32,000 nucleotides of DNA, from positions 60,001 through 92,000 of the forward strand of contig DXJG01000009.1 in NCBI GenBank assembly GCA_019056805.1, written 5' to 3'. Position 1 is the stretch's first letter. Every line of letters begins with the position of its first letter. The position numbers and the translations under genes were made by a program. Source of the DNA: Candidatus Baldrarchaeota archaeon (GTDB lineage Archaea; Asgardarchaeota; Baldrarchaeia; Baldrarchaeales; DXJG01). Below, piece after piece: positions 3,580 to 24,464 of this stretch. The notes under the pieces were generated by a model. That model saw only the letters and a program-made list of their open reading frames with translations, ran no database searches and had not been told where the DNA came from.

Positions 3580-4800
3580 TTATATCCAGTCTCCTGTTTC
3601 TATTTTTATTGGTAAATAATGGTCGGTTAAATATTTGAAACCGTGACTTGCCAATGCCTGTATCTCCGCTTTCTCTTTTCTATAAAGCATTAATTTAAGA
3701 TCCTCAACCCACTTCTTATTTCTTTGAACAAACGGTTCTTTAAGCAGTTGTTCAGTCCTTTCTATGTCCGCCTTTGTCATAGGTAAACGAACCTCCTTCG
3801 GAATGTTAAACTCGTCAAGGTCTTTACTTAAAACCCCTAACAACTTGATCTCTGGAGTTGCGAGGAAGGGGCTTTCATAACTAAGCTTCTTACTACCTCT
3901 TAAATAAACAGAGAAAATATAATGTCCATAAGGATCACTATCTACAAGTGCAAAAGCAGGAATTTTAAGTTCTTTTACAAGTTTCCTTAGAAACGCTCTA
4001 GTAGCAATATCTGCAGACCCCTTACCCGTTATAATAATACATGGCAATTTATTCCAATATTTTGCCTCAGCAAGACGAATCAATGCAGCATCCTTTTCCA
4101 CAACTAAGATCAGTTCCGCATCGCTTTCAACAATTTCAACTTGGTCTAGAAACGGAGTTATCGCCCATCCACCACTCCCAAGCCTGGTTAAATCTATGAG
4201 ATCTCCCGAATCTCTAATTATAAGTCTTCCTATAGCAGCTCCCTTTGCTGCTGCAACAACATGAGTACTATTACGTGTAGTTCCAAGCATAGCAGCTATA
4301 TCTTCTATAACATGGTCGCTAAATCTTTGTTCTTTGAAAAGCTTTACATCATTATAAAAGATTTCTCGCTTTGTTGCATGTATTCCTTCCTCTATTAACT
4401 CATGTATTATTTCTAAAATTCTTATAGTGCGTGTAGCATCTGCAACACTAGATAAACTATGAAATACTCTCCTTATCCTTTTTTGACCAAGAAGTAAAAG
4501 ATCGTGATCTTCATCATAAATAATATTGTCAGAAGTTCTTGCAGGAATCTCAAAGACAGGTCTTCCAGATTCTTCAATTTGTCTATAAAGTTCCCTAGCA
4601 GTTTCATGAATTCGTCGATGTACCTCTTCTGCTGGCAACTCTTCTACAACAATTACGTGAGATGGAAGTTTCCCCAGACGTTCTCTCCTCTTGGCCAGTT
4701 GTTCACGAAGTTCTCTAACCCGTTTTAAAAGTTTCTCAAGTTCCCAAACGGGTTTTCTATCAGCAAATTTTTTACGTGTTTTCTTTTTCTCCGTGGCCAT
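3580..4800 (-). CDS. top6A: DNA topoisomerase VI subunit A (Spo11 family) with basic N-terminal extension
   Basis: EIPARTSDNIIYD, winged-helix HATKREIFY with catalytic Tyr, Toprim VVEKDAA and DSDPYG, KAEIQAL. Confidence 0.93.
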   Translation of the reverse strand: MATEKKKTRKKFADRKPVWELEKLLKRVRELREQLAKRRERLGKLPSHVIVVEELPAEEVHRRIHETARELYRQIEESGRPVFEIPARTSDNIIYDEDHDLLLLGQKRIRRVFHSLSSVADATRTIRILEIIHELIEEGIHATKREIFYNDVKLFKEQRFSDHVIEDIAAMLGTTRNSTHVVAAAKGAAIGRLIIRDSGDLIDLTRLGSGGWAITPFLDQVEIVESDAELILVVEKDAALIRLAEAKYWNKLPCIIITGKGSADIATRAFLRKLVKELKIPAFALVDSDPYGHYIFSVYLRGSKKLSYESPFLATPEIKLLGVLSKDLDEFNIPKEVRLPMTKADIERTEQLLKEPFVQRNKKWVEDLKLMLYRKEKAEIQALASHGFKYLTDHYLPIKIETGDWI

Positions 4801-4811
4801 AATGCTTCCCC

Positions 4812-6668
4812 CTAGCTACCACCAGTTTCAATAACCGCAAGTTCTTCAACGGGTGTCTCAACACGTTCAATCGTAGATTTTATCTTCTCTATGAGCATTT
4901 CAGGATCAATGGTACCATCAAATTCGGTATCCGTTTTTAAAATGTTATATAAACTTCTTGCAAATTTTTCAGCGTATTTAGCCAAAACATATGCTCTTTT
5001 AGCTTTTCTCTCCGCGGTTTCTTTTCCTGTAATATAAGCTCGTAATTTCCTAGCTACCTCTTCCAACGCTAGCTTAATTTCCTTTACAAGTAGCTTATCC
5101 TCAGCCAAAGCCTGTTTGCTTTGACCTTTGAACATAACATGAACAAATGGGCCTGCAACATGTACAAATACCCTTACTGGGCCTCTAGGAAGCCCGTTTT
5201 CAAAAACATCAAGCTTATAATTCTTCCAATTAACAGAAGCAGCTGCTTTCCATATAGCACAATCACTATTATCTCTAAGTTTAGGTGTACGATTAACAAA
5301 CCGCCATAACACCTGCGAAGAAGACGTGGTATACGGTATTTCACCACCATATGCTATACAAGCTTCAACAACATAACTTAGTCCTTTACCACTTGTTGGC
5401 GGTCTTGTAACAGCAGCCACAAACTCCGGCTTAAATACCTCTCTCACAACTTTCTCAAAAACTTCGCTTCCAACAGGAACAACGGTATCCTTTGACGGTG
5501 CAAGATATTTTTGCGAAGTAAAAACTTTGAAAAGCACCTCTATTTGTTCCTTTGTTAACTCCCTTGGACTTGTTCTCTTCTTTATCTGAGGTAAACCTAA
5601 CTCTTTTAGTTCTTTATTTGCTTCCTTAAATATTTTTCTCGCTTTTTCCTCGCTCATTCTAGAAAAAGTTTTAGATAGAAAAGATAGAACAGTTTTACAT
5701 TTTGTATCTCTAAGTAAGTCTTGGAATTCTCCAATATTTACAGATGCTGGATGCGGTTTTGCATATTTTGGTTCCGGAGGAAACTCAGATACTCTTCTTG
5801 GATAAACATGAACCTCATTATACGGATCAATAAAAACGATGGTTATATGAGCGTTTAGTAGCGAAGCTCTTTCCACATAAACATCCGCGTATCCTCTCTT
5901 GTATATAATATTTAAGTAATACAGCTTAACAAAAGTGCCGTGAGGAAAAGGAGAATCTACTTTCTTAGGATTAATAGCATAATCCTTTGTGTTCTTTGTT
6001 GTTGTAAAGAAACTGGTAACAGTTGCCTTATCTTTGAGATAATGCTTACTAACCACAGTAATAGGCTTACCAGTAGTATTTTGAGCATCTGTAAATGCAG
6101 ATGGGGCACCAAAACCTTGAGATCCACGAGTTTGTCTAAGTCTCTCACTTTTGCTAGAAGCAAGATAAATACCAAACTTCTTCAAATCTTGCGGAATCAT
6201 TCCTGCACCATTGTCAAAAATAGTAAACTCGTATACACGAACCTTCTCACGATGAGCATCCGAAAGAAAAGTAGGAGTTTCCACTTCCCTAAGCCAAATA
6301 ATAACTACAGGCTCCTTTCTATCTATCAACATTTTAACAGGTTCAATAAACTCCTCAACATGTTCAATAACTTCTTTAGCAGTCTTAAACTCTTTCAAAT
6401 TATTTCCTTTATACTTCCCAATCATTTCCTTAGCTTTTCCAACTATTTCATTCACAACATCCTCGGTAATCTTATTACTAAGGTCATAGGCCTCAGGAAA
6501 TTTCCAATAAAAACTTTCAATAGCATCAAGAGCATTATCCAAAAACTCAGCAACATATTGCATATGTTTATTAAAACCAAATTCAAATCCCACTAACTGT
6601 GTACGTTTCCTCATAAATTCCGCAATCGTACTTTGCTTAATTTCACCTACAAATTTTTCTTGCTCCAC
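4812..6668 (-). CDS. top6B: DNA topoisomerase VI subunit B with large insertion in the GHKL domain
   Basis: GHKL motifs EFLDNALDA, DNGAGM, QTRGSQGFGA, HGT; H2TH region; transducer RFVNRTP and Lys in FKGQSKQAL. GTG start with GAGGG SD. Confidence 0.92.
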   Translation of the reverse strand: MEQEKFVGEIKQSTIAEFMRKRTQLVGFEFGFNKHMQYVAEFLDNALDAIESFYWKFPEAYDLSNKITEDVVNEIVGKAKEMIGKYKGNNLKEFKTAKEVIEHVEEFIEPVKMLIDRKEPVVIIWLREVETPTFLSDAHREKVRVYEFTIFDNGAGMIPQDLKKFGIYLASSKSERLRQTRGSQGFGAPSAFTDAQNTTGKPITVVSKHYLKDKATVTSFFTTTKNTKDYAINPKKVDSPFPHGTFVKLYYLNIIYKRGYADVYVERASLLNAHITIVFIDPYNEVHVYPRRVSEFPPEPKYAKPHPASVNIGEFQDLLRDTKCKTVLSFLSKTFSRMSEEKARKIFKEANKELKELGLPQIKKRTSPRELTKEQIEVLFKVFTSQKYLAPSKDTVVPVGSEVFEKVVREVFKPEFVAAVTRPPTSGKGLSYVVEACIAYGGEIPYTTSSSQVLWRFVNRTPKLRDNSDCAIWKAAASVNWKNYKLDVFENGLPRGPVRVFVHVAGPFVHVMFKGQSKQALAEDKLLVKEIKLALEEVARKLRAYITGKETAERKAKRAYVLAKYAEKFARSLYNILKTDTEFDGTIDPEMLIEKIKSTIERVETPVEELAVIETGGS

Positions 6669-6743
6669 GTCGCAACCCTCACTAAACTATTAACACCGAA
6701 ATAAGATAAACTTGTCTAAACAACAAAACACAACAAATTAAAT

Positions 6744-6763
6744 TCTGGTATTAAAATACCAGA
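6744..6763. promoter_or_regulatory. 9-bp inverted repeat (TCTGGTATT-AA-AATACCAGA) upstream of top6B
   Basis: Perfect arms read directly; lies 76-95 bp upstream of the top6B start. Function inferred only. Confidence 0.35.
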
Positions 6764-7087
6764 TATGCCGCGAAGCAACTATCTTAAAGTTGCAAAATAT
6801 ATTATAATGAAACCTAAAAAGTTTTCTATTCCCCATTTCAAACTAAATAGATACCTACACCAACAAAATCCTGATTCCAATCGTTTCAATTCTACAATAC
6901 TTTATTTCTCCACAAAGATGCCCAATACATATACCCTAAACCCTAAATAAGCACAGAACAACACAACATCCACAGAATCCAAAAAACCTCTAATCACCTC
7001 AGAATACAAAAAACCTAAAAAACGCATCAAAACATAAAATTAAAATACCCAACCAACAAACTTAAAATAAAATAACACTAAAAACGT

Positions 7088-7215
7088 GCCGCCGTAGCTC
7101 AGATGGTAGAGGAAACCCGCTGAAAGCGCCGGATGTGGCTTAAAACCACAGGCGAAGCTGTTAACAAAAGGTAGAAACCCGGCGGTCCCCGGTTCGAGTC
7201 CGGGCGGCGGCGCCA
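7088..7215 (+). tRNA. tRNA-Asn(GTT) with three introns (22/23: 7110-7124; 30/31: 7133-7156; 37/38: 7164-7176), CCA encoded
   Basis: Removing the three segments gives a perfect 76-nt cloverleaf GCCGCCG-TA-GCTC-AGATGGTA-GAGC-G-CCGGG-CTGTTAA-CCCGG-CGGTC-CCCGG-TTCGAGT-CCGGG-CGGCGGC-G-CCA. G73 fits Asn. BHB-type motifs at the junctions. Confidence 0.9.
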
Positions 7216-7334
7216 CATACTTGCCTTTCACTCTAAACGCAAAATTAAAGAACCATCTGTAAAATACTGAGAAAAGTAAACTTTTAATCATCAACATTAT
7301 ATTAAAATAGTAGAAGTAAAAGTTATCAATAAGT

Positions 7335-7448
7335 GGGCCCGTAGCTCAGCCCGGTTAGGCAGCACAAACCACGGAAAGAGCGACAGGCTCATAATCCTCG
7401 AGAGGAGAAACCTGTTGGTCGTGGGTTCAAATCCCACCGGGCCCACCA
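7335..7448 (+). tRNA. tRNA-CAT, most likely tRNA-Ile2 (agmatidine type), with two introns (20a/21: 7357-7376; 37/38: 7394-7409), CCA encoded
   Basis: Spliced form GGGCCCG-TA-GCTC-AGCCCGGTTA-GAGC-G-ACAGG-CTCATAA-CCTGT-TGGTC-GTGGG-TTCAAAT-CCCAC-CGGGCCC-A-CCA. The GGGCCC acceptor stem is the archaeal Ile type; no A1-U72, so not the initiator. Confidence 0.88.
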
Positions 7449-7451
7449 TAT

Positions 7452-7495
7452 CAATTTTGTTTTTTAACTATTTCTATTATAATTTCTTTTTGTTA
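7452..7495 (+). terminator. T-rich putative terminator after the tRNA pair
   Basis: Oligo-T tracts (ttttgtttttt; tttctttttg) directly 3' of tRNA-Ile. Confidence 0.4.
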
Positions 7496-7752
7496 AAATT
7501 CCTGATCATTCTTTTTCAGGCTCGGTTCAAAAGAAAATACGTCAATGTATTATTTATGTTATGAAATCAGAGAATTTCTTAAGCACATTTTTAGACGGTT
7601 TTGCATCTATAACAGAGTGAAGCATTATCGATATCTTCATTATTTTTAATTGCTGTAATAATTAACAATGTGGAATAGCTTTTTGATTGGTTTGAAGTTA
7701 ATTTGTGAGCAAAGTTGAAAAAAATTCTTAACAACCTGTAGGTGTGTTGTTA

Positions 7753-8532
7753 ATGTCCGATATAAGGGGTGAGATAGAGGTTTTTCTTAGAAAATTTGGT
7801 GTGTTCAAAGTTGGTATTGCTGACCCTACGCTTGGGTTCAAAATGGCTAAGAGTGGGTGCCATCCAAAGGATGTTATGAAGAATTGTAATTCGGTGATTG
7901 TTTTTGCCTTCCACGCCGGTTTAGATTATTATACCACTTTAAGTTATTATCAGATGCCGAACGTTGAATCTCGAGTGCTTAGCATTTATAGTGATTGGGT
8001 TTCTATGCAGCTTATCCACTTCCTGGAAGATCTGGGCTACAACGCCATTTACCCTCATGGTTATGCCGATGAAAAAATGAGAATTGCACGCCTATCATTT
8101 AAATTAGCAGCCTATGAGGCAGGAATAGGCGTATTTGGAAGACCAAGCATTTTAATAACACCCGAATACGGACCAAGGGTAAACCTTAGAGTGATTCTTA
8201 CAAACGCTTCCATACGACCCGATAAACCTTTAACAAACTTCAATCCTTGCCAAAAATGCGATGTATGTGTTAAACTTTGCCCAGTAAACGCCATTGACGA
8301 TAAACTGCCACCACCTACAGGATTCGATAGAAATCGTTGCCTTCAATTCGTCTATAAAATTCGAGAAAAAACCAATAGGAAGATAATGTTTTGCGGATAC
8401 TGCTATAACTATTGTCCAGCAGGAGAAATATCAAAGAAAACATTCCACTTGAGTAAATTAAGAACTCTACTTGATTTAAGCGAAAAAGAAAGAGAAAAAC
8501 TACTACAAATGCTAAATATAAACAAAAAATAA
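7753..8532 (+). CDS. QueG/reductive-dehalogenase-like (COG1600-type) cobalamin-binding 2x[4Fe-4S] protein, function unknown
   Basis: SFKLAAYEAGIGVFGRPSILITPEYGPRVNLRVILT, then CQKCDVCVKLCP and C-x18-CGYCYNYCP. Lacks the DYH and VDTG motifs of true QueG. ATG 7753 preceded by AGGTG. Confidence 0.8.
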   Translation: MSDIRGEIEVFLRKFGVFKVGIADPTLGFKMAKSGCHPKDVMKNCNSVIVFAFHAGLDYYTTLSYYQMPNVESRVLSIYSDWVSMQLIHFLEDLGYNAIYPHGYADEKMRIARLSFKLAAYEAGIGVFGRPSILITPEYGPRVNLRVILTNASIRPDKPLTNFNPCQKCDVCVKLCPVNAIDDKLPPPTGFDRNRCLQFVYKIREKTNRKIMFCGYCYNYCPAGEISKKTFHLSKLRTLLDLSEKEREKLLQMLNINKK

Positions 8533-8686
8533 AATTAAACAATTCCTCCCGCAAAATAGGAAAAGACGAGTCTTACAGAGACCAGTTTATTCAACTTCTT
8601 CTTAAAGCTTGTTAATATCCTAAAGTTTGGGTTTAAACTTATCTTCTACGACGCATTTGACTAAGAAGCTTCTATATAGGCAATTA

Positions 8687-9778
8687 TTAAAGGTTGTTTT
8701 CATAAGCTTCGGTTAGAGCTGAACATGCCCCACATCTTACACATCCTGCAAGATTTTTACGCGGGTCAATTCCATAATCTCTAAGAATTTGTGCAACCTC
8801 CCGATAAATATAAGTTAATTTTTCTGGCGAGGGAGGAGACCTATTTTCAAAAGGAGTTCCAATAATTGGACGCAAAGGCACAATATAAGGAATCACACCT
8901 ATCTCCGCCGCTTTCTCAGAACCTTTCAAAACACTTTCAACGCCTTCTCCTAATCCAACAATAACGTACGTACTAACTTGACATTCTCCAAAAAGTTCTA
9001 CGCACCTTGCCCAAGTCTCATAAAATTTCTCCATTCCAATACGTCCCTTCCCCGGACAAACCTCACGAAATATTTTCTTGTCAAAGGTCTCTATATGAAC
9101 ACCCACCGTATCCGCCCCAGCATCAGCAAGTTCTTCTATATACCTCAAGTCATTTGGCGGCTCTAATTGAACGTGAATTGGAATCTCGTAATGATTCTTT
9201 ACCTCCCGAACAATCTCTGCAAGTAAATTTGCACCTTTATCCGGAGTTCCAGGAGTACCAGTAGTCAAAGTAATATGTTTACAAACCCCTTCTCCAACTG
9301 CTGCATCAACAACCTCTCTAAATTCCCTCGCCTTCTTAAGAAGAATAGTTTTTCCATACTTTAACGAAAGTTCTATTCCACAAAACTTACAGCCCAAACC
9401 CTTACTCCAATAAATACATTTTTGAAAAACCGTGGTAGCTAAGCAATCAGTACCATGTAAAAGAGCTACCTTCCACATAGGTGTCCCATTAGAAGTACAT
9501 TTTCTATAAAACTGAGGATAAGGAACTAAACCCACCTCAGAAACCTTTTCTCCATCTTCCTTAATCACATAAAATTTTTCATCTCTTTCTACCAGAACAT
9601 AGGGAGACTTTTCAACAAACCTACCCCACATCGCCGCATTAACACAACGCCCAGACGGAAGAATAATATATCTTCCTCCAGCCGGACCAGCTCCCCCCTT
9701 TCTTCCCCTATCAATATTAACTCCAAGCTTAATACCCCTACAAAGCAAAGCAACCTTAAGTTCACCAAAACTCTCCAT
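8687..9778 (-). CDS. Radical SAM protein, MSMEG_0568/NitD-like family
   Basis: GRKGGAGPA, LLHGTDCLATTVFQK, expanded cluster motif C-x8-C-x2-C (CIYWSKGLGCKFC), HITLTTGT, C-terminal GCVRCGACS. Confidence 0.82.
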   Translation of the reverse strand: MESFGELKVALLCRGIKLGVNIDRGRKGGAGPAGGRYIILPSGRCVNAAMWGRFVEKSPYVLVERDEKFYVIKEDGEKVSEVGLVPYPQFYRKCTSNGTPMWKVALLHGTDCLATTVFQKCIYWSKGLGCKFCGIELSLKYGKTILLKKAREFREVVDAAVGEGVCKHITLTTGTPGTPDKGANLLAEIVREVKNHYEIPIHVQLEPPNDLRYIEELADAGADTVGVHIETFDKKIFREVCPGKGRIGMEKFYETWARCVELFGECQVSTYVIVGLGEGVESVLKGSEKAAEIGVIPYIVPLRPIIGTPFENRSPPSPEKLTYIYREVAQILRDYGIDPRKNLAGCVRCGACSALTEAYENNL

Positions 9779-10284
9779 TATTCATCACGACCCACAATTT
9801 TCTCATAAAGATGCACAAGCATCCCAGGTATCTGCTCATACTCTTTTATCTTTCGAAAACCATACTTTTTAACAATCTTCACACTAGCTATCTGTGTGGG
9901 CAAAATATTAACCCGAACACTAACACAACCCCTTTCCCTAGCAAACCTCAATATATGCTCATACATAGCCTTCGCAAGTCCTCGCCCCCTATAATCAGGA
10001 TGAATAGAAAGATGCTCTCCCAAACAAATATCACCCTCAATCTTCGCCTTATACACAGCTACCAACTTTCTATCAAGCCTAATACCAAAATAACAATAAC
10101 CCTCCAACATTTCCCTTATAATCTCCTCACTAGAAAGACATCTCCTCCGACGCCACTCCGCTGGATACTCCTCAGCAAAAGGCCAAACCAAGCGAAACAA
10201 CAACTCTATCTCAGAAGCATCCTCTACACCCAACTTTTCAACGACATACCTTTGTATGTCAATAAACTTCCTAACATCCCTCAT
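9778..10284 (-). CDS. GNAT family N-acetyltransferase
   Basis: Acetyl-CoA motif A IHPDYRGRGLAKAM, motif B ASVKIVKKYGF. Its stop overlaps the radical SAM start (TAATG at 9776-9780). Confidence 0.88.
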   Translation of the reverse strand: MRDVRKFIDIQRYVVEKLGVEDASEIELLFRLVWPFAEEYPAEWRRRRCLSSEEIIREMLEGYCYFGIRLDRKLVAVYKAKIEGDICLGEHLSIHPDYRGRGLAKAMYEHILRFARERGCVSVRVNILPTQIASVKIVKKYGFRKIKEYEQIPGMLVHLYEKIVGRDE

Positions 10285-10454
10285 TTCAAACGCCCGAAAC
10301 CAATAAATAAACCAACAAGCTCCCTAAACCATACCTAAAACATAATCCTAACTCTATAAAAGAAACAAAAATAAATGTAAACCTTTCGCACAAACAAGCA
10401 ACAACCACCAAAATCACAAAAACAAGTAAAAATAATAGAAGAACAGAAAAGAAG

Positions 10455-10559
10455 TGGTGCCGCCGCCCGGATTTGAACCGGGGACATCCGGATCTTCAGT
10501 CCGGCGCTTTTGGGTTTTTTGTTGTTTTTGTTCTTTCTCCCAGACTGAGCTACGGCGGC
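10455..10559 (-). tRNA. tRNA-Phe(GAA) with one 28-nt D-arm intron (22/23; 10509-10536), CCA encoded
   Basis: Spliced minus strand GCCGCCG-TA-GCTC-AGTCTGGGA-GAGC-G-CCGGA-CTGAAGA-TCCGG-ATGTC-CCCGG-TTCAAAT-CCGGG-CGGCGGC-A-CCA. Perfect TGGG/CCCA central helix with 3-nt bulge. Confidence 0.92.
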
Positions 10560-10631
10560 TTAGTGTTCATTTATAGTGTTGAGGTGTTTTGTCCTAAAAA
10601 GTTTACTCTTGTTGGGTTGTATTTGTTGGTG

Positions 10632-11942
10632 TTATTTTTCTTTTATTTTTGGTTCTTTTACCTTTAGGATTATTATTGCTAGGGATATTAGGTTTAGGAT
10701 GAGGAGTGTTATAAATGGTGTTATTTTGTTGAGGTATTGATAGGTGTATCCTCCATAGATGTTTCCTGGTACCATTGCTAGGAAGGATGACATTAGAGAT
10801 ATAGCTGCCATGGTTCTTCCTCTAAGTTCGCGCGGTATTAGGTCTGCTTGTAGGGCTGATATTGCTACACCTAGTATTCCTAATGATAGTGCAAATAGGG
10901 CGAAGTTCATGACGAGTATGTGATATTTTTGGAGTATTATTGTACTTGTTGGTAGAGTTATTGTTATTGTTGTGAACATTGGTGTTAATAGGTAGATTAT
11001 AGTTGCTGTGGCGAAGAGTGTATGTGATAGGGCCCAAGATTTTTTTCTTCCAATTTTATCTACGATGAATCCTGCAGGGAATAATGCTAAGGGGTAAGTA
11101 AAAATGGAGGTGAAGTATAAAATTGCCCATTGTTGGTTGGTTATTCCTATTTCATCTGTTGTGTAGAATATCCAGTATTGTGAACATGCTGCGTAGCTAA
11201 AGGTAAAAATGATATATGCGATGATTAGCCAGACTAAGCTTTTTTTCATGGATTTTATTGCATGTTTATAGGATGTTAAAGTGTCTTTAAGGAATTCTTT
11301 TAATCCTTCTGTTGTTTTCTTGTTTTTGGTTTGTAATGTTTCTTTGAGGAAGAAACTCCTTAGTATAGCTGCTATTATTGCGCATGTGGATGCGATGAGG
11401 AATGCTATTTTTACTCCCTGAATTAGTCCGTGTTGTGTTATTAGAATTCCTGCAACTAGGGCTGAAGGGGCTGCTGCTAGATATGTTATTAGATATGTTA
11501 GGGAGTACCCTTTTCCACGTTTTTCTGGTGGTATGCTGTCAGCTATCATTGCTTGGAGCGCGGGGATATAAATAGATGTTAATGCCAGCGTTGATTCGGC
11601 TACTATTAGCCATTGCCAAGTTGGCGCTGCTGCATACAATAAGTATGAGAGAGCTACAAAAAACGTGAATGTCGCTATTATGTTTTTCCTTCCATAGCGG
11701 TCGGCTACATATCCTCCTATTATTGCTACTATTGCGTATATTGCTGTGTAAAGTGCTTGAAGTAAACCTGGGACAATTTCCGGGGCCCCAAGTCCCACGA
11801 CGTATTTCGGATAATATGTGCCTGTAGTTCCTCTCGCAAACTCTATGAATGCCCATGTAACTATTATTATCAGCAGGTTCCCCCTTAGTAAGGAGAAATA
11901 TTCGCGAAGTTCTTTTAGTTTTCCTTCCCCCAAAACGGTCAC
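10632..11942 (-). CDS. Major facilitator superfamily transporter
   Basis: About 12 hydrophobic segments; motif A GGYVADRYGRK and its repeat GFIVDKIGRKK; ADSIPPEKRG and ADLIPRELRG. Confidence 0.93.
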   Translation of the reverse strand: MTVLGEGKLKELREYFSLLRGNLLIIIVTWAFIEFARGTTGTYYPKYVVGLGAPEIVPGLLQALYTAIYAIVAIIGGYVADRYGRKNIIATFTFFVALSYLLYAAAPTWQWLIVAESTLALTSIYIPALQAMIADSIPPEKRGKGYSLTYLITYLAAAPSALVAGILITQHGLIQGVKIAFLIASTCAIIAAILRSFFLKETLQTKNKKTTEGLKEFLKDTLTSYKHAIKSMKKSLVWLIIAYIIFTFSYAACSQYWIFYTTDEIGITNQQWAILYFTSIFTYPLALFPAGFIVDKIGRKKSWALSHTLFATATIIYLLTPMFTTITITLPTSTIILQKYHILVMNFALFALSLGILGVAISALQADLIPRELRGRTMAAISLMSSFLAMVPGNIYGGYTYQYLNKITPFITLLILNLISLAIIILKVKEPKIKEK

Positions 11943-12067
11943 CGTAAGGAACTATACATGATGTAAGGTATTCGGTTTTGTAAGGGGTTTACATATATTT
12001 TGCTGGTGAGAGACAAATAAATAAATTATTATATTTTTATTTTATTGTTTTTTCGCTTGTATATGGT

Positions 12068-13621
12068 ATGGTGATCTTTTTGTTGGATCGTATCTTGGAG
12101 GTTAATGTAGTTAAAAAAGATTGGAGGAAGGTTGATCTTAGGTTTGCCTTTGTTTATCCAAATGTTTATAGGGTTGGTATGTCTTCTTTCACTACTCAGC
12201 TTTTGTATTTTCTTTTGAATTCTAGAGAGGATGTTGCTTGTGAGCGGTGTTTTTTACCTTATCAGAGGAATGTTTCTCCAATTTCTTTAGAATCTGGACG
12301 TGGTTTAAGAGATTTTGATGTTATTGGTTTTACTTTGCAGTTTGAAACTGACTATGTTAATGTTGTTGATATACTTCGTAGATCTGGTATTCCCTTGTAC
12401 ACTAAAGACCGTTCTGAGAGAGATCCTTTGATTATTGCTGGGGGACCGTGTGCTTGGGAGAATCCTGAACCAGTAAGTGATTTTTTTGATCTTTTCATTA
12501 TTGGGGATGCTGAAGCTGTGTTAGATAAGTTTATCGATGTTTTTTTGGAGGTTAAGAAGCCTAGGGAAAATTTAGAGGTTTTTGCTGAGATTGAAGGTAT
12601 ATATGTTCCGTCGTTGGGTAAACATTATGTAAAGCGTGCTTGGATTAGGAAACTTGATGATTGTCCTCATCCAATTGCTGAAGTAATTCCTCAAGTTGAT
12701 GAAAATAGTTCTTTTGCTCCAGTTTTTGGCAAGTCTTTTCTTCTTGAAGCTACCCGCGGTTGTAGTCGTGGTTGCAGTTTTTGTCTTATAGGTTTTCAAA
12801 ATAGACCCATGAGAGCTAGAAGCTTTGAATTTTTAAGGAAGTTGATTGATGAGGGACCGAAGTTCTCTGGGGTTAATAAGGTTTCTTTGATAGGTTCTGC
12901 TGTTGCTGATCATCCTAATTTTGAAGATTTGTGTTGGTATGTTGTTGATAGTGGTTTTGAGCTTTCTGTTCCATCTCTTCGTATTGATGGTTTTTCTGAG
13001 TCTATTGCTGAAACCTTGATTAAGGGTGGGCAGAAAACAGTTACTTTTGCTCCTGAAGCAGGGACTTTTAGACTTAGACAAATCGTAAATAAACCCTTTA
13101 CTGATGAACAGATTTTATCTGCTATTAGTATCGCTAAGGAGTGCGGTATTAAGCACGTGAAATTATATTTTATTGTTGGTTTACCGAATGAGACGGAAGA
13201 AGATTTGAAGAGTATTACAGATTTAATTCGTAAAATTATAGAATTAGGTTATTCTGCTAGGGATCTTCATGTGAGTATTACTCCATTTATTCCAAAGCCA
13301 CATACACCTTTTCAATGGGTGGCTCAACTTCCTTTGAAAGAAATTAGAAGGCGTTTAAACTTTTTAGTGAGTGATTTGAGAAAGCTTGGTTTAAATTACA
13401 TCGATTATCTTGATCCTAGGTGGGCTAAGATTCAAGCAGCATTATCTCTGGGAGACAGAAGACTTGGAAAACTAATTGAATATGTTGCTGAGCATGGAAA
13501 TAATTTAGGTACATGGAGGAGGGCTCAGAAAATATTTAACATTGATTTAACACGATATGTTGATGAAGCTAGAAGTTTAGATAAAGAGTTACCTTGGTCC
13601 CATATTGATGTAGGTGTATAA
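12068..13621 (+). CDS. Radical SAM protein with N-terminal B12-binding-like domain (COG1032, TIGR03960-like)
   Basis: YPNVYRVGMS, FDVIGFTLQFE, IIAGGPCAWENPEP, EATRGCSRGCSFC, TFAPEAG, FIPKPHTPFQW. Confidence 0.85.
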   Translation: MVIFLLDRILEVNVVKKDWRKVDLRFAFVYPNVYRVGMSSFTTQLLYFLLNSREDVACERCFLPYQRNVSPISLESGRGLRDFDVIGFTLQFETDYVNVVDILRRSGIPLYTKDRSERDPLIIAGGPCAWENPEPVSDFFDLFIIGDAEAVLDKFIDVFLEVKKPRENLEVFAEIEGIYVPSLGKHYVKRAWIRKLDDCPHPIAEVIPQVDENSSFAPVFGKSFLLEATRGCSRGCSFCLIGFQNRPMRARSFEFLRKLIDEGPKFSGVNKVSLIGSAVADHPNFEDLCWYVVDSGFELSVPSLRIDGFSESIAETLIKGGQKTVTFAPEAGTFRLRQIVNKPFTDEQILSAISIAKECGIKHVKLYFIVGLPNETEEDLKSITDLIRKIIELGYSARDLHVSITPFIPKPHTPFQWVAQLPLKEIRRRLNFLVSDLRKLGLNYIDYLDPRWAKIQAALSLGDRRLGKLIEYVAEHGNNLGTWRRAQKIFNIDLTRYVDEARSLDKELPWSHIDVGV

Positions 13622-20608: not shown

Positions 20609-20733
20609 CATAAAATTTATAACCTTCAGAATGTAAATCGGTTAAGCTATTAATCAATCTCTTATATCAAGTTTTAACCTAAGTCAATAACTTTTTACTT
20701 TCTTAAGATCAACATTATATGGGGGACAAATTC

Positions 20734-21444
20734 ATGTTCACACCCGGGTTTGGCTATGATCGTGCTATAACTATATTCAGTCCTGACGGCAGATTATTCC
20801 AAGTTGAATACGCTTTGGAAGCTGTAAAACGCGGCACAACAGCTGTTGGCGTAAGATGCCCTGAAGGAGTAGTTCTAGCTGTAGAGAAGAGAGTAGTACC
20901 ATTACAAGAGTCCGTTGAAAAAATTTATATCATCGATGACCATATTGGAACCGCAATTGCTGGATTAACTTCAGATGCCAGAATTTTGGTAGCTGAGGCT
21001 AGACTTCAAGCACAAATTAATAAATTAAATTATGATACTCCAATATCTGTTGAAATTTTAACTAAAAGAATTGGGGATTTAAAGCAGTTATATACTCAAC
21101 ATGCTGGAGTAAGACCCTTTGGAGTATCGCTTTTAATCGCAGGTGTAGATGACTATGGTTCACATCTATTTGTCACAGATCCTTCTGGGACATATTGGGG
21201 TTATAAGGCAACAGCAATCGGGGCAGGAGCTTCTTCAGCCATGGAAATACTTGAAAAAGAATATCGTGATGATTTAGACATAAATTCAGCTATTTTATTG
21301 GCGTTAAAGTCTTTAAAAAATGCAATGGGAAGTGAATTTGATTCTAAAAAAGTAGAGGTTGCCGTAGCCCTTATGAAAACCAAAAAGTTCGAAAAACTTC
21401 CAGCAGAGGAAGTTGAAAATTTCATTCAAAAACTTAAGGAATAA
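20734..21444 (+). CDS. psmA: Proteasome alpha subunit
   Basis: [44 protein letters not shown]. Start 20719 or 20734. Confidence 0.98.
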
Positions 21445-21457
21445 GGATGGTGTATCC

Positions 21458-22189
21458 TTGAGCGATATTAGAGGTGAGAAATGGGTTAGACTTGAAAAGG
21501 CTGTCATTGCAAGACTTGAAACTCACGGAACACGGTTTGAAGTTGTTGTTGACCCTGATAAAGCATGGGAGTTCAAACAAGGTAAAGATGTGGATATCAG
21601 GGAAATATTAAAGGGCTACATGGTTTTTGAAGATTTAAAACATGGGAAAAAGGCATCTGAAGAAAAGCTGATTGAAGCTTTCGGGACAGATGATATATTT
21701 GAAGTTGCAAAGATTATTATTAAGAAGGGACAGCTTCAGCTAACTGCTGAGCAACGTAGAAAAATGATTGAGGAGAAAAAGAAACGAATAATCGACCTTA
21801 TTTCAAAGTACTGTATCAATCCTCAAACAGGGCTTCCACACCCTCCTGCAAGAATTGAAAAGGCTTTAGAAGAAGCTAAGGCTGCAATAGATCCATTTAA
21901 AGATCCTGAAACCCAACTCAAGGATATTGTCAAAGCATTGCAGCCAATTATACCTATTAGAATGGAAATGGTGACTCTTAAAATTAGGGTCCCAGCTGTG
22001 TTTACAGGAAAAGTTTATGGCTTGATATTGAGTGCTGGCAACCTACTTGAGGAAAAATGGTTGTCAGACGGGTCACTTGAAGCTCAGGTAGAGCTTCCAG
22101 CAGGAGTAAAAGTAGATTTTCTAGAAAAATTGAATAAAATTACAAAAGGCCAAACGAGAGTTGAAGTCGTTAAAAGTCCTGGTGGGTGA
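21458..22189 (+). CDS. sdo1: SBDS/Sdo1 ribosome maturation factor
   Basis: [47 protein letters not shown] 21458 preferred (track start 21413). Confidence 0.95.
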
Positions 22190-22193
22190 TAAA

Positions 22194-22892
22194 ATGCCAA
22201 TATATTTTCAAAGTAAAGATATAGTTTTGCCCGGAGATCTCTTAGCTGAGGGAGATTATAAAGCAGGTACGGGCACATTTAAAGAGGATTCAAAAATATA
22301 TTCCGCAGTTATTGGATTATTTGAAATTCGAGGGAAAATACTTCGAGTAATCTCTCTTGAGGGTACCTATATTCCAAGACCTAATGATGTTGTAATTGGG
22401 AAAATTGTTGACGTATCGGCGACAAATTGGAAGGTAGAAATAAGAGCGCCATATCTCGCAAATCTACCCGCTGCAAATTACTTTGATAAACCAATAGATC
22501 CCTTAAAAAGCGACATTAGACGTTATTTAAATGTAGGTGATATAATTGTAGCAAAGGTAGTATCATTTAATAGAGCTCAAGACCCTCTTTTAACTACAAA
22601 AGAAAGGGGTCTTGGAAAACTTAGAGGTGGGAGAATAATAGAAATGTCACCTACAAAAATCCCGAGGCTCATTGGACGTAAAGGATCGATGGTAAATATG
22701 ATCAAAGAAGAAACTGGGTGTAGAATAACAGTTGGTCAAAATGGAAGAGTATGGGTTTCATGTAAAACCCCTGAATATGAAGAATTAATTGAGAAAGTTA
22801 TTAGAAAAATCGAACTAGAAGCACATACATCTGGACTTACAGATAGAGTAAGAGAACTTATAAGAAAAGAAAAGGAGAGGTTGAAAAAATGA
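22194..22892 (+). CDS. rrp4: Exosome RNA-binding subunit Rrp4
   Basis: [18 protein letters not shown] (S1), [12 protein letters not shown] and GQNGRVW (KH). Confidence 0.96.
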
Positions 22893-23665
22893 AGTTCATT
22901 AAGCATGAAATACCTCAAAAATTAATTACTGAAGATGGTTTAAGGACGGATGGAAGAAGATTTCACGAGCTTAGACCAATAAAATTAGAAGTTGGTATCT
23001 TGAAAAGAGCTGATGGATCAGCCTATATAGAACAAGGCAGAAATAAAATAATGGTTGCTGTATATGGTCCAAGAGAACTACATCCGAGACATTTAGCTTT
23101 ACCAGATAAAGCACTCTTAAGATGTTTTTATAGGATGGCTTCTTTCTCTGTAGAGGATAGAAAAAGTCCAGCTCCAAGCAGAAGAGAAATAGAATTATCA
23201 AAAGTTATTAGGGAAGCATTAGAGCCTGCTATATTCCTAGAAAGGTTCCCAAAAACTGCAATTGATGTTTTTATAGAAGTGCTTCAAGCAGACGGAGGAA
23301 CACGATGCGCCAGCATAACATCTGCAGCCCTTGCCTTAGCTGATGCAGGAATACCCATGAGGGATCTTGTATCAGCTGTAGCGGTTGGAAAAGTTGATGG
23401 ACATATAGTGTTGGACATAAACGATTTAGAAGATAAATATGGCGAAGGTGATATGCCGACCGCTATGATGCCTAGAAAGAAAGAAGTTACACTTATTCAA
23501 CTTGACGGGCAATGGTCAATCGAAGAATTTAAACAAGGATTTGAACTTGCATTAAAAGGTTGTGAACAAATATATCAACTTCAAAGAGAAGCTCTAAAGA
23601 AGCGATATATTGAAATAAGAGAACAAGCAGCCAAGGAGATGGGTGAAAATGCAGAAAATACATAA
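22889..23665 (+). CDS. rrp41: Exosome catalytic subunit Rrp41
   Basis: [44 protein letters not shown]. Confidence 0.97.
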
Positions 23666-24464
23666 AATAGCATCGGAGATAGAAAAAGATAGCATAATAT
23701 CCCTTGCTGAAAAGGGCAAAAGATTAGATGGAAGAGGGCTAGAAGACTTCAGAGAGGTTACAATTGAAGCCGGAGTAATAGAAAAAGCAGAGGGATCTGC
23801 GTATGTAACCCTAGGTGATACAAAAATAATGGCTGGAGTCAAATTAGAAATCGGAGAACCATTTCCGGATACTCCTGACAAAGGGGTATTCACGGTTAAT
23901 GCTGAATTCGTTCCACTTGCGTCACCAGTTTTCGAACCCGGACCACCTGATGAAGATGCTATTGAACTTGCTAGGGTAATTGATAGAGGTATAAGAGAAA
24001 GTGAAGCAATAGACCTAGAAAAATTATGTATAATTCCAGGAGAGAAGGTTTGGATCGCTTTTATAGACATATATATTCTTGATCATGCTGGAAATTTATT
24101 CGACGCCTCAACACTTGGCAGTATAACCGCCCTTTTAAATACAAAAATGCCTGAAGTAAAAGTGGAAAACGGAGAAGTAAAAATATTAGATAAACTGGTT
24201 TCATTCCCTATTAGAAAAATACCAGTATCAGTAACGTTTGCTAAAATAAACGATAAACTTGTTGTGGATCCATGTATTGAAGAAGAACATGTAATGAATG
24301 CTAGACTCACCATAACGATGGATGAAAACGATAATATTGTAGCGATGCAAAAAGGCGGGGCAGGAACATTAAAAACAGAAGATATATACAAAGCTATCGA
24401 AATAGCCAAAGTAAAAACCAAAGAACTCCGCGAGAAAATACCGAGAGGTGTTTCTAATGGGTAG
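23643..24464 (+). CDS. rrp42: Exosome subunit Rrp42
   Basis: [55 protein letters not shown]. Confidence 0.97.

Follow-up and report, generated by a model that had tools for sequence, protein, structure and literature searches.

A short-range keto/amino strand switch centred on tRNA genes in a Baldrarchaeia genome and other Asgard archaea

Three tRNA genes at two loci lie in the 32,000-nt window analysed here (C17:60001–92000), which comes from a metagenome-assembled genome of the Asgard class Baldrarchaeia (1.92 Mb, 35% GC, 18 contigs). This placement follows from its topoisomerase VI-A, with 92–93% identity to MAGs labelled Baldrarchaeota or Odinarchaeota and 81% to Ca. Baldrarchaeum yapensis. 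At both loci the plus strand switches abruptly from A/C-rich to G/T-rich composition. Genes were called with an amino-acid-based score, and tRNA genes were taken from Rfam matches (7088–7212 (+), 7335–7445 (+) and 10458–10559 (−)) plus manual checks. The first locus carries a tRNA-Asn(GTT) gene with three introns (7088–7215, +; identity assigned by eye after intron removal) and a tRNA gene with a CAT anticodon and two introns (7335–7448, +; elongator Met or Ile2). The second locus is a tRNA-Phe(GAA) gene with a D-loop intron (10453–10559, −; anticodon read from the sequence). ARAGORN run without intron search detected zero tRNAs in the window, and at relaxed settings it returned many false ones and hence was not used. 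The one to three introns of these genes occupy non-canonical positions, and tRNAs with several introns have been reported from Freyarchaeia (PMC11291895). The tRNA-Phe genes of congeners carry an additional anticodon-arm intron that is missing from the genome under study.

The A/C-rich (plus strand) flank to the left of the tRNA pair covers 4812–7087, is most extreme in the intergenic stretch 6800–7087, and extends into the topoisomerase VI-B gene. To the right of the pair is a short G/T-rich flank (7449–8050), ended by the opposing flank of tRNA-Phe inside the gene at 7744–8532. From 8050 to 10452 the plus strand is A/C-rich, increasingly so toward tRNA-Phe, and from 10453 to 13621 it is G/T-rich, in opposition to the weak A/C background of the contig. 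Four hand counts of 60-nt lines, given in the original prediction drawn from the letters of this window, were reproduced exactly (18 C/2 G, 3 C/19 G, 18 C/2 G and 0 C/20 G). The skew is one of keto versus amino bases (G+T versus A+C), its T/A component being no weaker than its G/C component, and was measured as K (K4), the keto skew (G+T−A−C) at fourfold sites of the plus strand with the coding-strand mean subtracted. At tRNA-Phe the jump is 0.65 (genome standard deviation 0.096), a value reached at 0.03% of genome positions, and at the tRNA pair it is 0.40, reached at 0.24%. Minima of cumulative skew at 10453 and 7454 correspond to the 3′ ends of tRNA-Phe and the CAT tRNA. A sigma-70 promoter scan and a repeat search of the window gave nothing informative.

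Synonymous sites follow the DNA strand and not the gene. To the left of tRNA-Phe, the GNAT acetyltransferase and radical SAM gene pair (8687–10284, −) is A/C-rich at these sites when read on the plus strand (fourfold sites of the GNAT gene, A34 C11 G3 T8; right half of the radical SAM gene at 8687–9778, A51 C15 G3 T15). To the right, the MFS transporter gene (10632–11942, −) is G/T-rich (left half, A10 C1 G24 T64), as is a radical SAM gene on the opposite strand (12068–13621, +; left half, A11 C6 G8 T74). The GNAT and MFS genes are both on the minus strand and have opposite skew, so that the earlier argument against a coding-strand bias holds. The reversal noted with the original prediction, within the gene at 7744–8532 (+), was also seen. 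This gene, for a 4Fe-4S protein similar to QueG and reductive dehalogenases at scores below cut-offs, is the crossing point of both gradients, and its fourfold sites change from A9 C10 G10 T22 to A27 C6 G2 T12 (plus strand) as the G/T flank belonging to the tRNA pair gives way to the A/C flank of tRNA-Phe.

The same switch is found at tRNA genes throughout the genome. Within 500 nt of them, K4 lies between −0.26 and −0.37 on their left side and between +0.26 and +0.28 on their right side. The check proposed with the original prediction, a genome-wide comparison of tRNA genes with intergenic sites, showed an upward jump at 39 of 40 tRNA loci (p = 3e-14 against 691 intergenic controls). All of the genome's seven sharpest two-sided switches are at tRNAs, with tRNA-Phe ranking second. 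Some loci have no footprint, and others are almost purely A/C upstream and G/T downstream. At strong loci, which were chosen by jump size, the bias declines from 0.62 to 0 by 4.5–5 kb with a half-decay of about 1.5 kb. Among related genomes, the second check proposed, the footprint occurs in three congeners (0.16–0.26), in Freyarchaeia CP147778 (0.22) and in several other Asgard genomes (0.07–0.21), with little or none in five Asgard genomes; as kin are not independent, this describes a distribution and is not a test. A long-term, bidirectional footprint centred on tRNA genes and independent of the coding strand, as originally proposed, is therefore general across the tRNAs of this genome and extends to related genomes.

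Assembly joins, inversions ending at tRNAs, foreign islands, or codon or amino-acid selection might have produced such a pattern as an artefact or a one-off history. The gene at 7744–8532 is indeed missing at that place in two congeners, and some of the one-sided peaks in other places stem from the codon usage of individual genes. Both tRNA loci, however, are crossed by independent contigs, one from another sample (8899–10978) and others from another study (10374–11161 and 6883–7303), all without differences and with no variants listed in the four sequencing runs compared, and a congener is syntenic from topoisomerase VI through the GNAT gene with the same skew profile; neither a join nor an inversion lies at the switch points. 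Per-gene skew is conserved in congeners (r 0.78–0.87), inverse switches are few and weak beside the common sign at the tRNA loci, the decay is graded, gene orientations are equal, and GC content at third codon positions is mostly ordinary. This explanation has next to no probability left and is already refuted.

The centre of the footprint could be placed within the tRNA genes. D-loop and anticodon-arm introns have upstream-type composition: the D-loop and intron of tRNA-Phe (10509–10544, −) read A22 C7 G5 T2 on the tRNA strand, which places the switch 3′ of the intron, and the anticodon-arm intron in the tRNA-Phe orthologues of two congeners is also A/C-rich. Since cumulative minima fall at tRNA 3′ ends as well, the centre is the 3′ half of the tRNA and not its promoter. 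The introns themselves were ruled out as the cause, as intron-less tRNA-Gly and tRNA-Ala genes are strongly skewed.

This position bears on transcription as a source of the asymmetry, by which outward untranslated read-through or antisense transcripts, or R-loops, would leave the non-template strand exposed or direct repair preferentially to the template strand. Strong transcription without translation is common to the tRNAs, the rRNA promoter region and the CRISPR array, and the lower rates on the inward (template) strand, given below, resemble transcription-coupled repair. Against it, the transcribed tRNA introns are of upstream type, the switch lies away from the promoter, the upstream flank is no weaker than the downstream one, protein-gene sense strands are without a G/T excess, and inteins bear the same scar in mid-gene (see below). 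We regard transcription as quite an improbable cause.

The original prediction likened the C-rich to G-rich switch to the polarity expected at replication origins, and recorded neither a cdc6 gene nor an origin recognition box (ORB) in the window. Both absences were confirmed: the genome's two cdc6 genes are on C6 and C9, and neither the canonical ORB nor a genome-specific ORB-like matrix has a match in the window or in the 500 nt around any tRNA, where the highest score was 8.9 bits (22–31 at true sites). No shared motif was found at the tRNAs. One cdc6 gene is immediately preceded by four ORB-like palindromes (C6:59098–59476) and a canonical ORB, and a homologous ORB-cdc6 locus with canonical ORBs is present in five other Asgard genomes. 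The array of ORBs, cdc6 and the polD small subunit gene (C6:59098–62684), conserved in six Asgard genomes, probably represents the chromosomal origin, oriC.

On the scale of the whole chromosome, the polarity argument is not borne out. Across the joined contigs C6-C9-C11 (1.06 Mb; joins based on 15–22-nt overlaps), K4 is positive to the left of about C6:60–80 kb and negative for about 1 Mb rightward, in genes on both strands. In sampled stretches of Freyarchaeia and of an Asgard chromosome of 1.42 Mb, GC skew at fourfold sites passes from G-rich to C-rich at the ORB-cdc6 locus. In three genomes, therefore, the chromosome-scale switch at this locus runs from G-rich to C-rich and the locus stands at the maximum of GC skew, and the leading strand is probably A/C-rich, as has been reported of haloarchaea (PMC1868953). 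Because the large-scale skew turns in this direction, origin calls at the skew minimum, such as those for Odinarchaeum (PMC9246712) and for the iRep replichores of Freyarchaeia (PMC11291895), may mark the terminus. With local and chromosome-scale skews opposite in sign, skew-based origin calls fail in these genomes. The strongest broad A/C to G/T switch of the genome (C18:42600–45700; K4 −0.58/+0.33, over tens of kb) contains toxin-antitoxin-like and other variable genes and no tRNA, and is a candidate terminus region.

At oriC, a local flip from A/C to G/T over 2–3 kb was found in three genomes, with the same sign and similar width as at the tRNAs (here K4 −0.33 to +0.60). At a distance of 4–25 kb, the step is −0.03 ± 0.02 over 27 tRNAs, −0.12 to −0.15 at tRNA-Phe, and 0.14 to −0.11 at oriC. 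Lacking both an ORB-like site and a long-range step, the tRNA genes are therefore not ordinary origins. They might nevertheless, along the lines of the original prediction, be Orc1-independent, short-range sites of replication initiation or restart, primed by R-loops or D-loops. Over the first few kb the outward strand would serve as lagging template and be exposed, and the inward strand would serve as leading template and be protected, redistributing the usual asymmetry locally, and the local forks would soon merge with those from oriC. The local flip that accompanies the ORB-cdc6 origin, in this and two further Asgard genomes, speaks for such a process, as do substitution rates that are redistributed at a near-constant total (below). 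The tRNAs facing the oriC fork also jump more in the genome under study (0.37 versus 0.20, p = 0.034), but four other genomes did not reproduce this head-on effect. The missing motif and long-range step speak against initiation or restart, the reversed large-scale polarity of oriC would require a second, unexplained polarity, and intein flanks with neutral interiors are left unexplained. Overall this appears rather unlikely, though it is the main rival of the explanation favoured below.

About 14 intergenic copies of the ORB-like palindrome lie away from oriC, at C6:55911, C8:2712, C9:311639, 380800 and 596830, C11:38373 and 249174, C17:47808, 100855 and 334424, and others. They show a weak upward jump (p about 0.002) and are also present in congeners; they may be either Orc1 sites or the operator of a regulator.

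Mirror-image jumps of the same kind flank other elements. The exteins at six of eight intein loci show jumps of 0.40–1.74 (highest in mcm; empirical p from 0.011 to <0.001), with neutral intein interiors (K about 0), so that the scar arises without a tRNA, promoter or ORB. The mcm exteins have K4 of −1.0/+0.7, common to congeners, and the second mcm intein, which is 88% identical in one congener, is neutral. A short Hel308 intein (310 aa, a single unbroken Pfam match) has no flanking jump and probably lacks an endonuclease, judging from this size and match. The CRISPR junction and three islands with neutral cores also have mirror flanks. An empty thyX intein site was considered as a further scar and rejected: none of 40 Asgard matches was an intein-bearing thyX, and upward intragenic jumps were no commoner than downward ones. 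tRNA genes, inteins, CRISPR arrays and islands are all generally known as sites of insertion, breakage and recombination.

Substitution rates were estimated from congener comparison at two-fold sites, with blocks classed by independent four-fold sites. Majority-rule polarisation of substitutions was dropped as unsound because two of the genomes are close relatives. In the strongest block class, keto-gaining changes on the outward, keto-rich strand run at about ×1.9 and keto-losing ones at about ×0.45 of background, with sums within about 30%; these rates assume stationarity, the long branch is near saturation, and the short branch varies strongly from gene to gene. At two-fold sites, G>A falls from 1.37 to 0.62 and T>C from 0.44 to 0.26, and A>G rises from 0.57 to 1.08 and C>T from 1.31 to 2.40; on the short branch, T>C falls from 0.114 to 0.046 and G>A from 0.232 to 0.113. 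A four-gene estimate is too noisy taken alone. The tRNA flanks by themselves show the same on the outward strand, with C>T and A>G raised and G>A and T>C lowered. Small transversion asymmetries, from few events (A>T above T>A, C>G above G>C), have the sign expected from the break-repair model set out below.

The original prediction offered persistent exposure of single-stranded DNA as one possible cause, and in that form, as an added mutagen, it is disfavoured by these rates. Mutagenesis confined to the outward strand could come from deamination of long-lived single-stranded DNA (C>T, A>G) or from error-prone gap filling after resection, for instance by a Pol-delta-like enzyme. The favoured changes are the deamination pair, both raised in the most skewed blocks on the long branch; the polarity of resected and refilled strands fits, and Baldrarchaeia encode a Pol-delta-like polymerase (PMC12680538). 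A purely additive process, however, would leave the reverse changes as they were; these drop to half or less, the intervals do not overlap, and the totals change by no more than about 30%. Added mutagenesis is consequently improbable.

We tentatively favour, at somewhat under even chances, recurrent breakage or fork collapse at tRNA genes that is mended by homologous recombination with a strand-polarised conversion bias. Up to about 4.5 kb from the 3′ half of the tRNA, G/T accumulates on the strand that runs 5′–3′ away from it, and A/C on the strand that runs toward it. A break followed by 5′–3′ resection would leave the inward-running strands as 3′ tails invading the homologue. If G:T, T:T and G:G mismatches in the heteroduplex were processed at the expense of the invading strand, and A:C, A:A and C:C overlooked, as the specificity of EndoMS/NucS would suggest, then G and T alleles would be lost from the inward strand, a keto/amino-biased gene conversion with a reach set by heteroduplex length. 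As a fixation bias, rare events would suffice in a large population. Transcription-replication conflict, or integrase attack on attachment sites in the 3′ half, are possible causes of breakage at tRNAs. MutS likewise prefers G:T. The genome under study has NucS, and MutS was not found in it. EndoMS cuts G/T, G/G and T/T and hardly C/C, A/C or A/A (PMC4838380). The match of the keto/amino axis to this specificity is suggestive only, given the MutS genome described below.

Break repair is preferred to extra origins because the same scar flanks selfish intein insertions. Co-location with known sites of break repair was observed at six of eight intein loci; at the tRNAs, breakage is a proposal. 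The mirror flanks of islands and of the CRISPR junction, the decay within 5 kb with no long-range step, and a centre in the 3′ half instead of at the promoter also speak for break repair. The rates rise and fall reciprocally at a near-constant total, stationarity assumed, as a conversion bias predicts: a fixation bias B of about 1.4 gives ×1.86 and ×0.46.

Several observations weigh against break repair. The local flip at oriC in three genomes is explained more directly by initiation. The reciprocal rate change fits a local change of fork direction equally well, and the rate data cannot separate the two. The rates also carry the assumption of stationarity, the near-saturated long branch and the gene-to-gene variation of the short one. 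A long intein, in the second PolB gene, is without a flanking scar, and neutral insert interiors could be a sign of recent arrival. A genome with MutS and no NucS match (89% complete) has a strong footprint (0.21), and some NucS-bearing genomes have none. As a predictor of the footprint, NucS/MutS content failed across the genomes compared. The two footprint-bearing MutS genomes are dominated by the G/C component and most NucS genomes by the T/A component, a difference that is confounded with GC content. Forks primed by recombination would blend the break-repair and initiation readings.

In a wider form, Asgard archaea would have a strand-polarised, keto/amino-biased gene conversion that leaves a mirror scar at each place where breaks recur (the 3′ halves of tRNA genes, the homing sites of inteins, CRISPR arrays, the borders of islands, and oriC) through mismatch-type-specific heteroduplex repair. 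This generalisation is possible, though doubtful. If true, it would be an archaeal counterpart of GC-biased gene conversion, and recombination hot spots and tract lengths of uncultured archaea could be read from one genome.

The tRNA footprint shares with replication strand asymmetry (bacterial GC or keto skew; multi-origin skew in archaea, PMC3269012; the inverted form in haloarchaea, PMC1868953) an abrupt keto/amino switch that is independent of gene direction, includes synonymous and intergenic sites, and forms a saw-tooth between neighbouring sites. It differs in being gone within about 4.5 kb, in having no replichore-scale step and no ORB or cdc6, in its occurrence at about 40 sites plus inteins and islands, and in a sign opposite to the genome's own replichore skew. 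A local reciprocal rate change that decays with distance around break repair, and that leaves heterologous inserts unaffected, is a point in common with GC-biased gene conversion at eukaryotic recombination hot spots (PMC12341927) and with co-conversion during the homing of inteins (PMC10643990, PMC3024317). The Asgard footprint departs from GC-biased conversion in its axis (keto versus amino, not GC versus AT) and its strand-polar mirror image, and a fixation bias is here only inferred. The heavy/light strand gradient of vertebrate mitochondria (PMC3269012) also has G/T- versus A/C-rich strands, graded with distance, with C>T and A>G favoured. The Asgard footprint is two-sided, occurs at many chromosomal sites, and does not raise the total rate. 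Bidirectional strand asymmetry occurs at mammalian transcription start sites and CpG islands. This too is a mirror asymmetry at a transcription landmark (a related paper is PMC13712754). It differs from the Asgard case, where the centre is the tRNA 3′ half, protein genes have no sense bias, and inteins are included.

A literature search, largely without subscription papers, found no description of tRNA-centred mirror skew in archaea, and the Asgard papers on skew treat the chromosome scale only (PMC11291895, PMC9246712). The tRNA-centred footprint is a strand asymmetry that is real, local, conserved and undescribed. The present analysis adds the long-range test, the finding in three genomes of an opposite polarity at chromosome scale, a test of all inteins including the negative cases, the mapping to the 3′ half and the rate analysis. 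In these largely uncultured lineages, the scar gives a length scale and a set of named sites at which initiation and break repair predict opposite outcomes, and it could act as a sequence-readable map of chromosome breakage or copying restart. Near the centre the bias is strong enough to fix nearly all synonymous sites, which makes it a potential source of distortion when codon use, composition or phylogeny is analysed in these relatives of eukaryotes.

Several minor features accompany these loci. The QueG/reductive-dehalogenase-like gene directly behind the CAT tRNA, missing there in two congeners, represents a gain or loss beside a tRNA gene. In the topoisomerase VI-A gene (window 3580–4800), two congeners differ at 1.3% of synonymous sites, versus 5–16% in neighbouring genes, possibly reflecting recent recombination. 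The intein-bearing PolB at C17:5181–9209, with unscarred intein flanks and a C-terminal zinc-finger region, is likely the Pol-delta-like enzyme described for Baldrarchaeia (PMC12680538). Contig C8 (28139 nt) has near-identical inverted ends, with an A/C-rich left arm, a neutral glycosyltransferase-like core and a G/T-rich right arm. At 20719–24464 of the window, genes for proteasome alpha, SBDS, Rrp4, Rrp41 and Rrp42 form the usual archaeal exosome-proteasome gene string.

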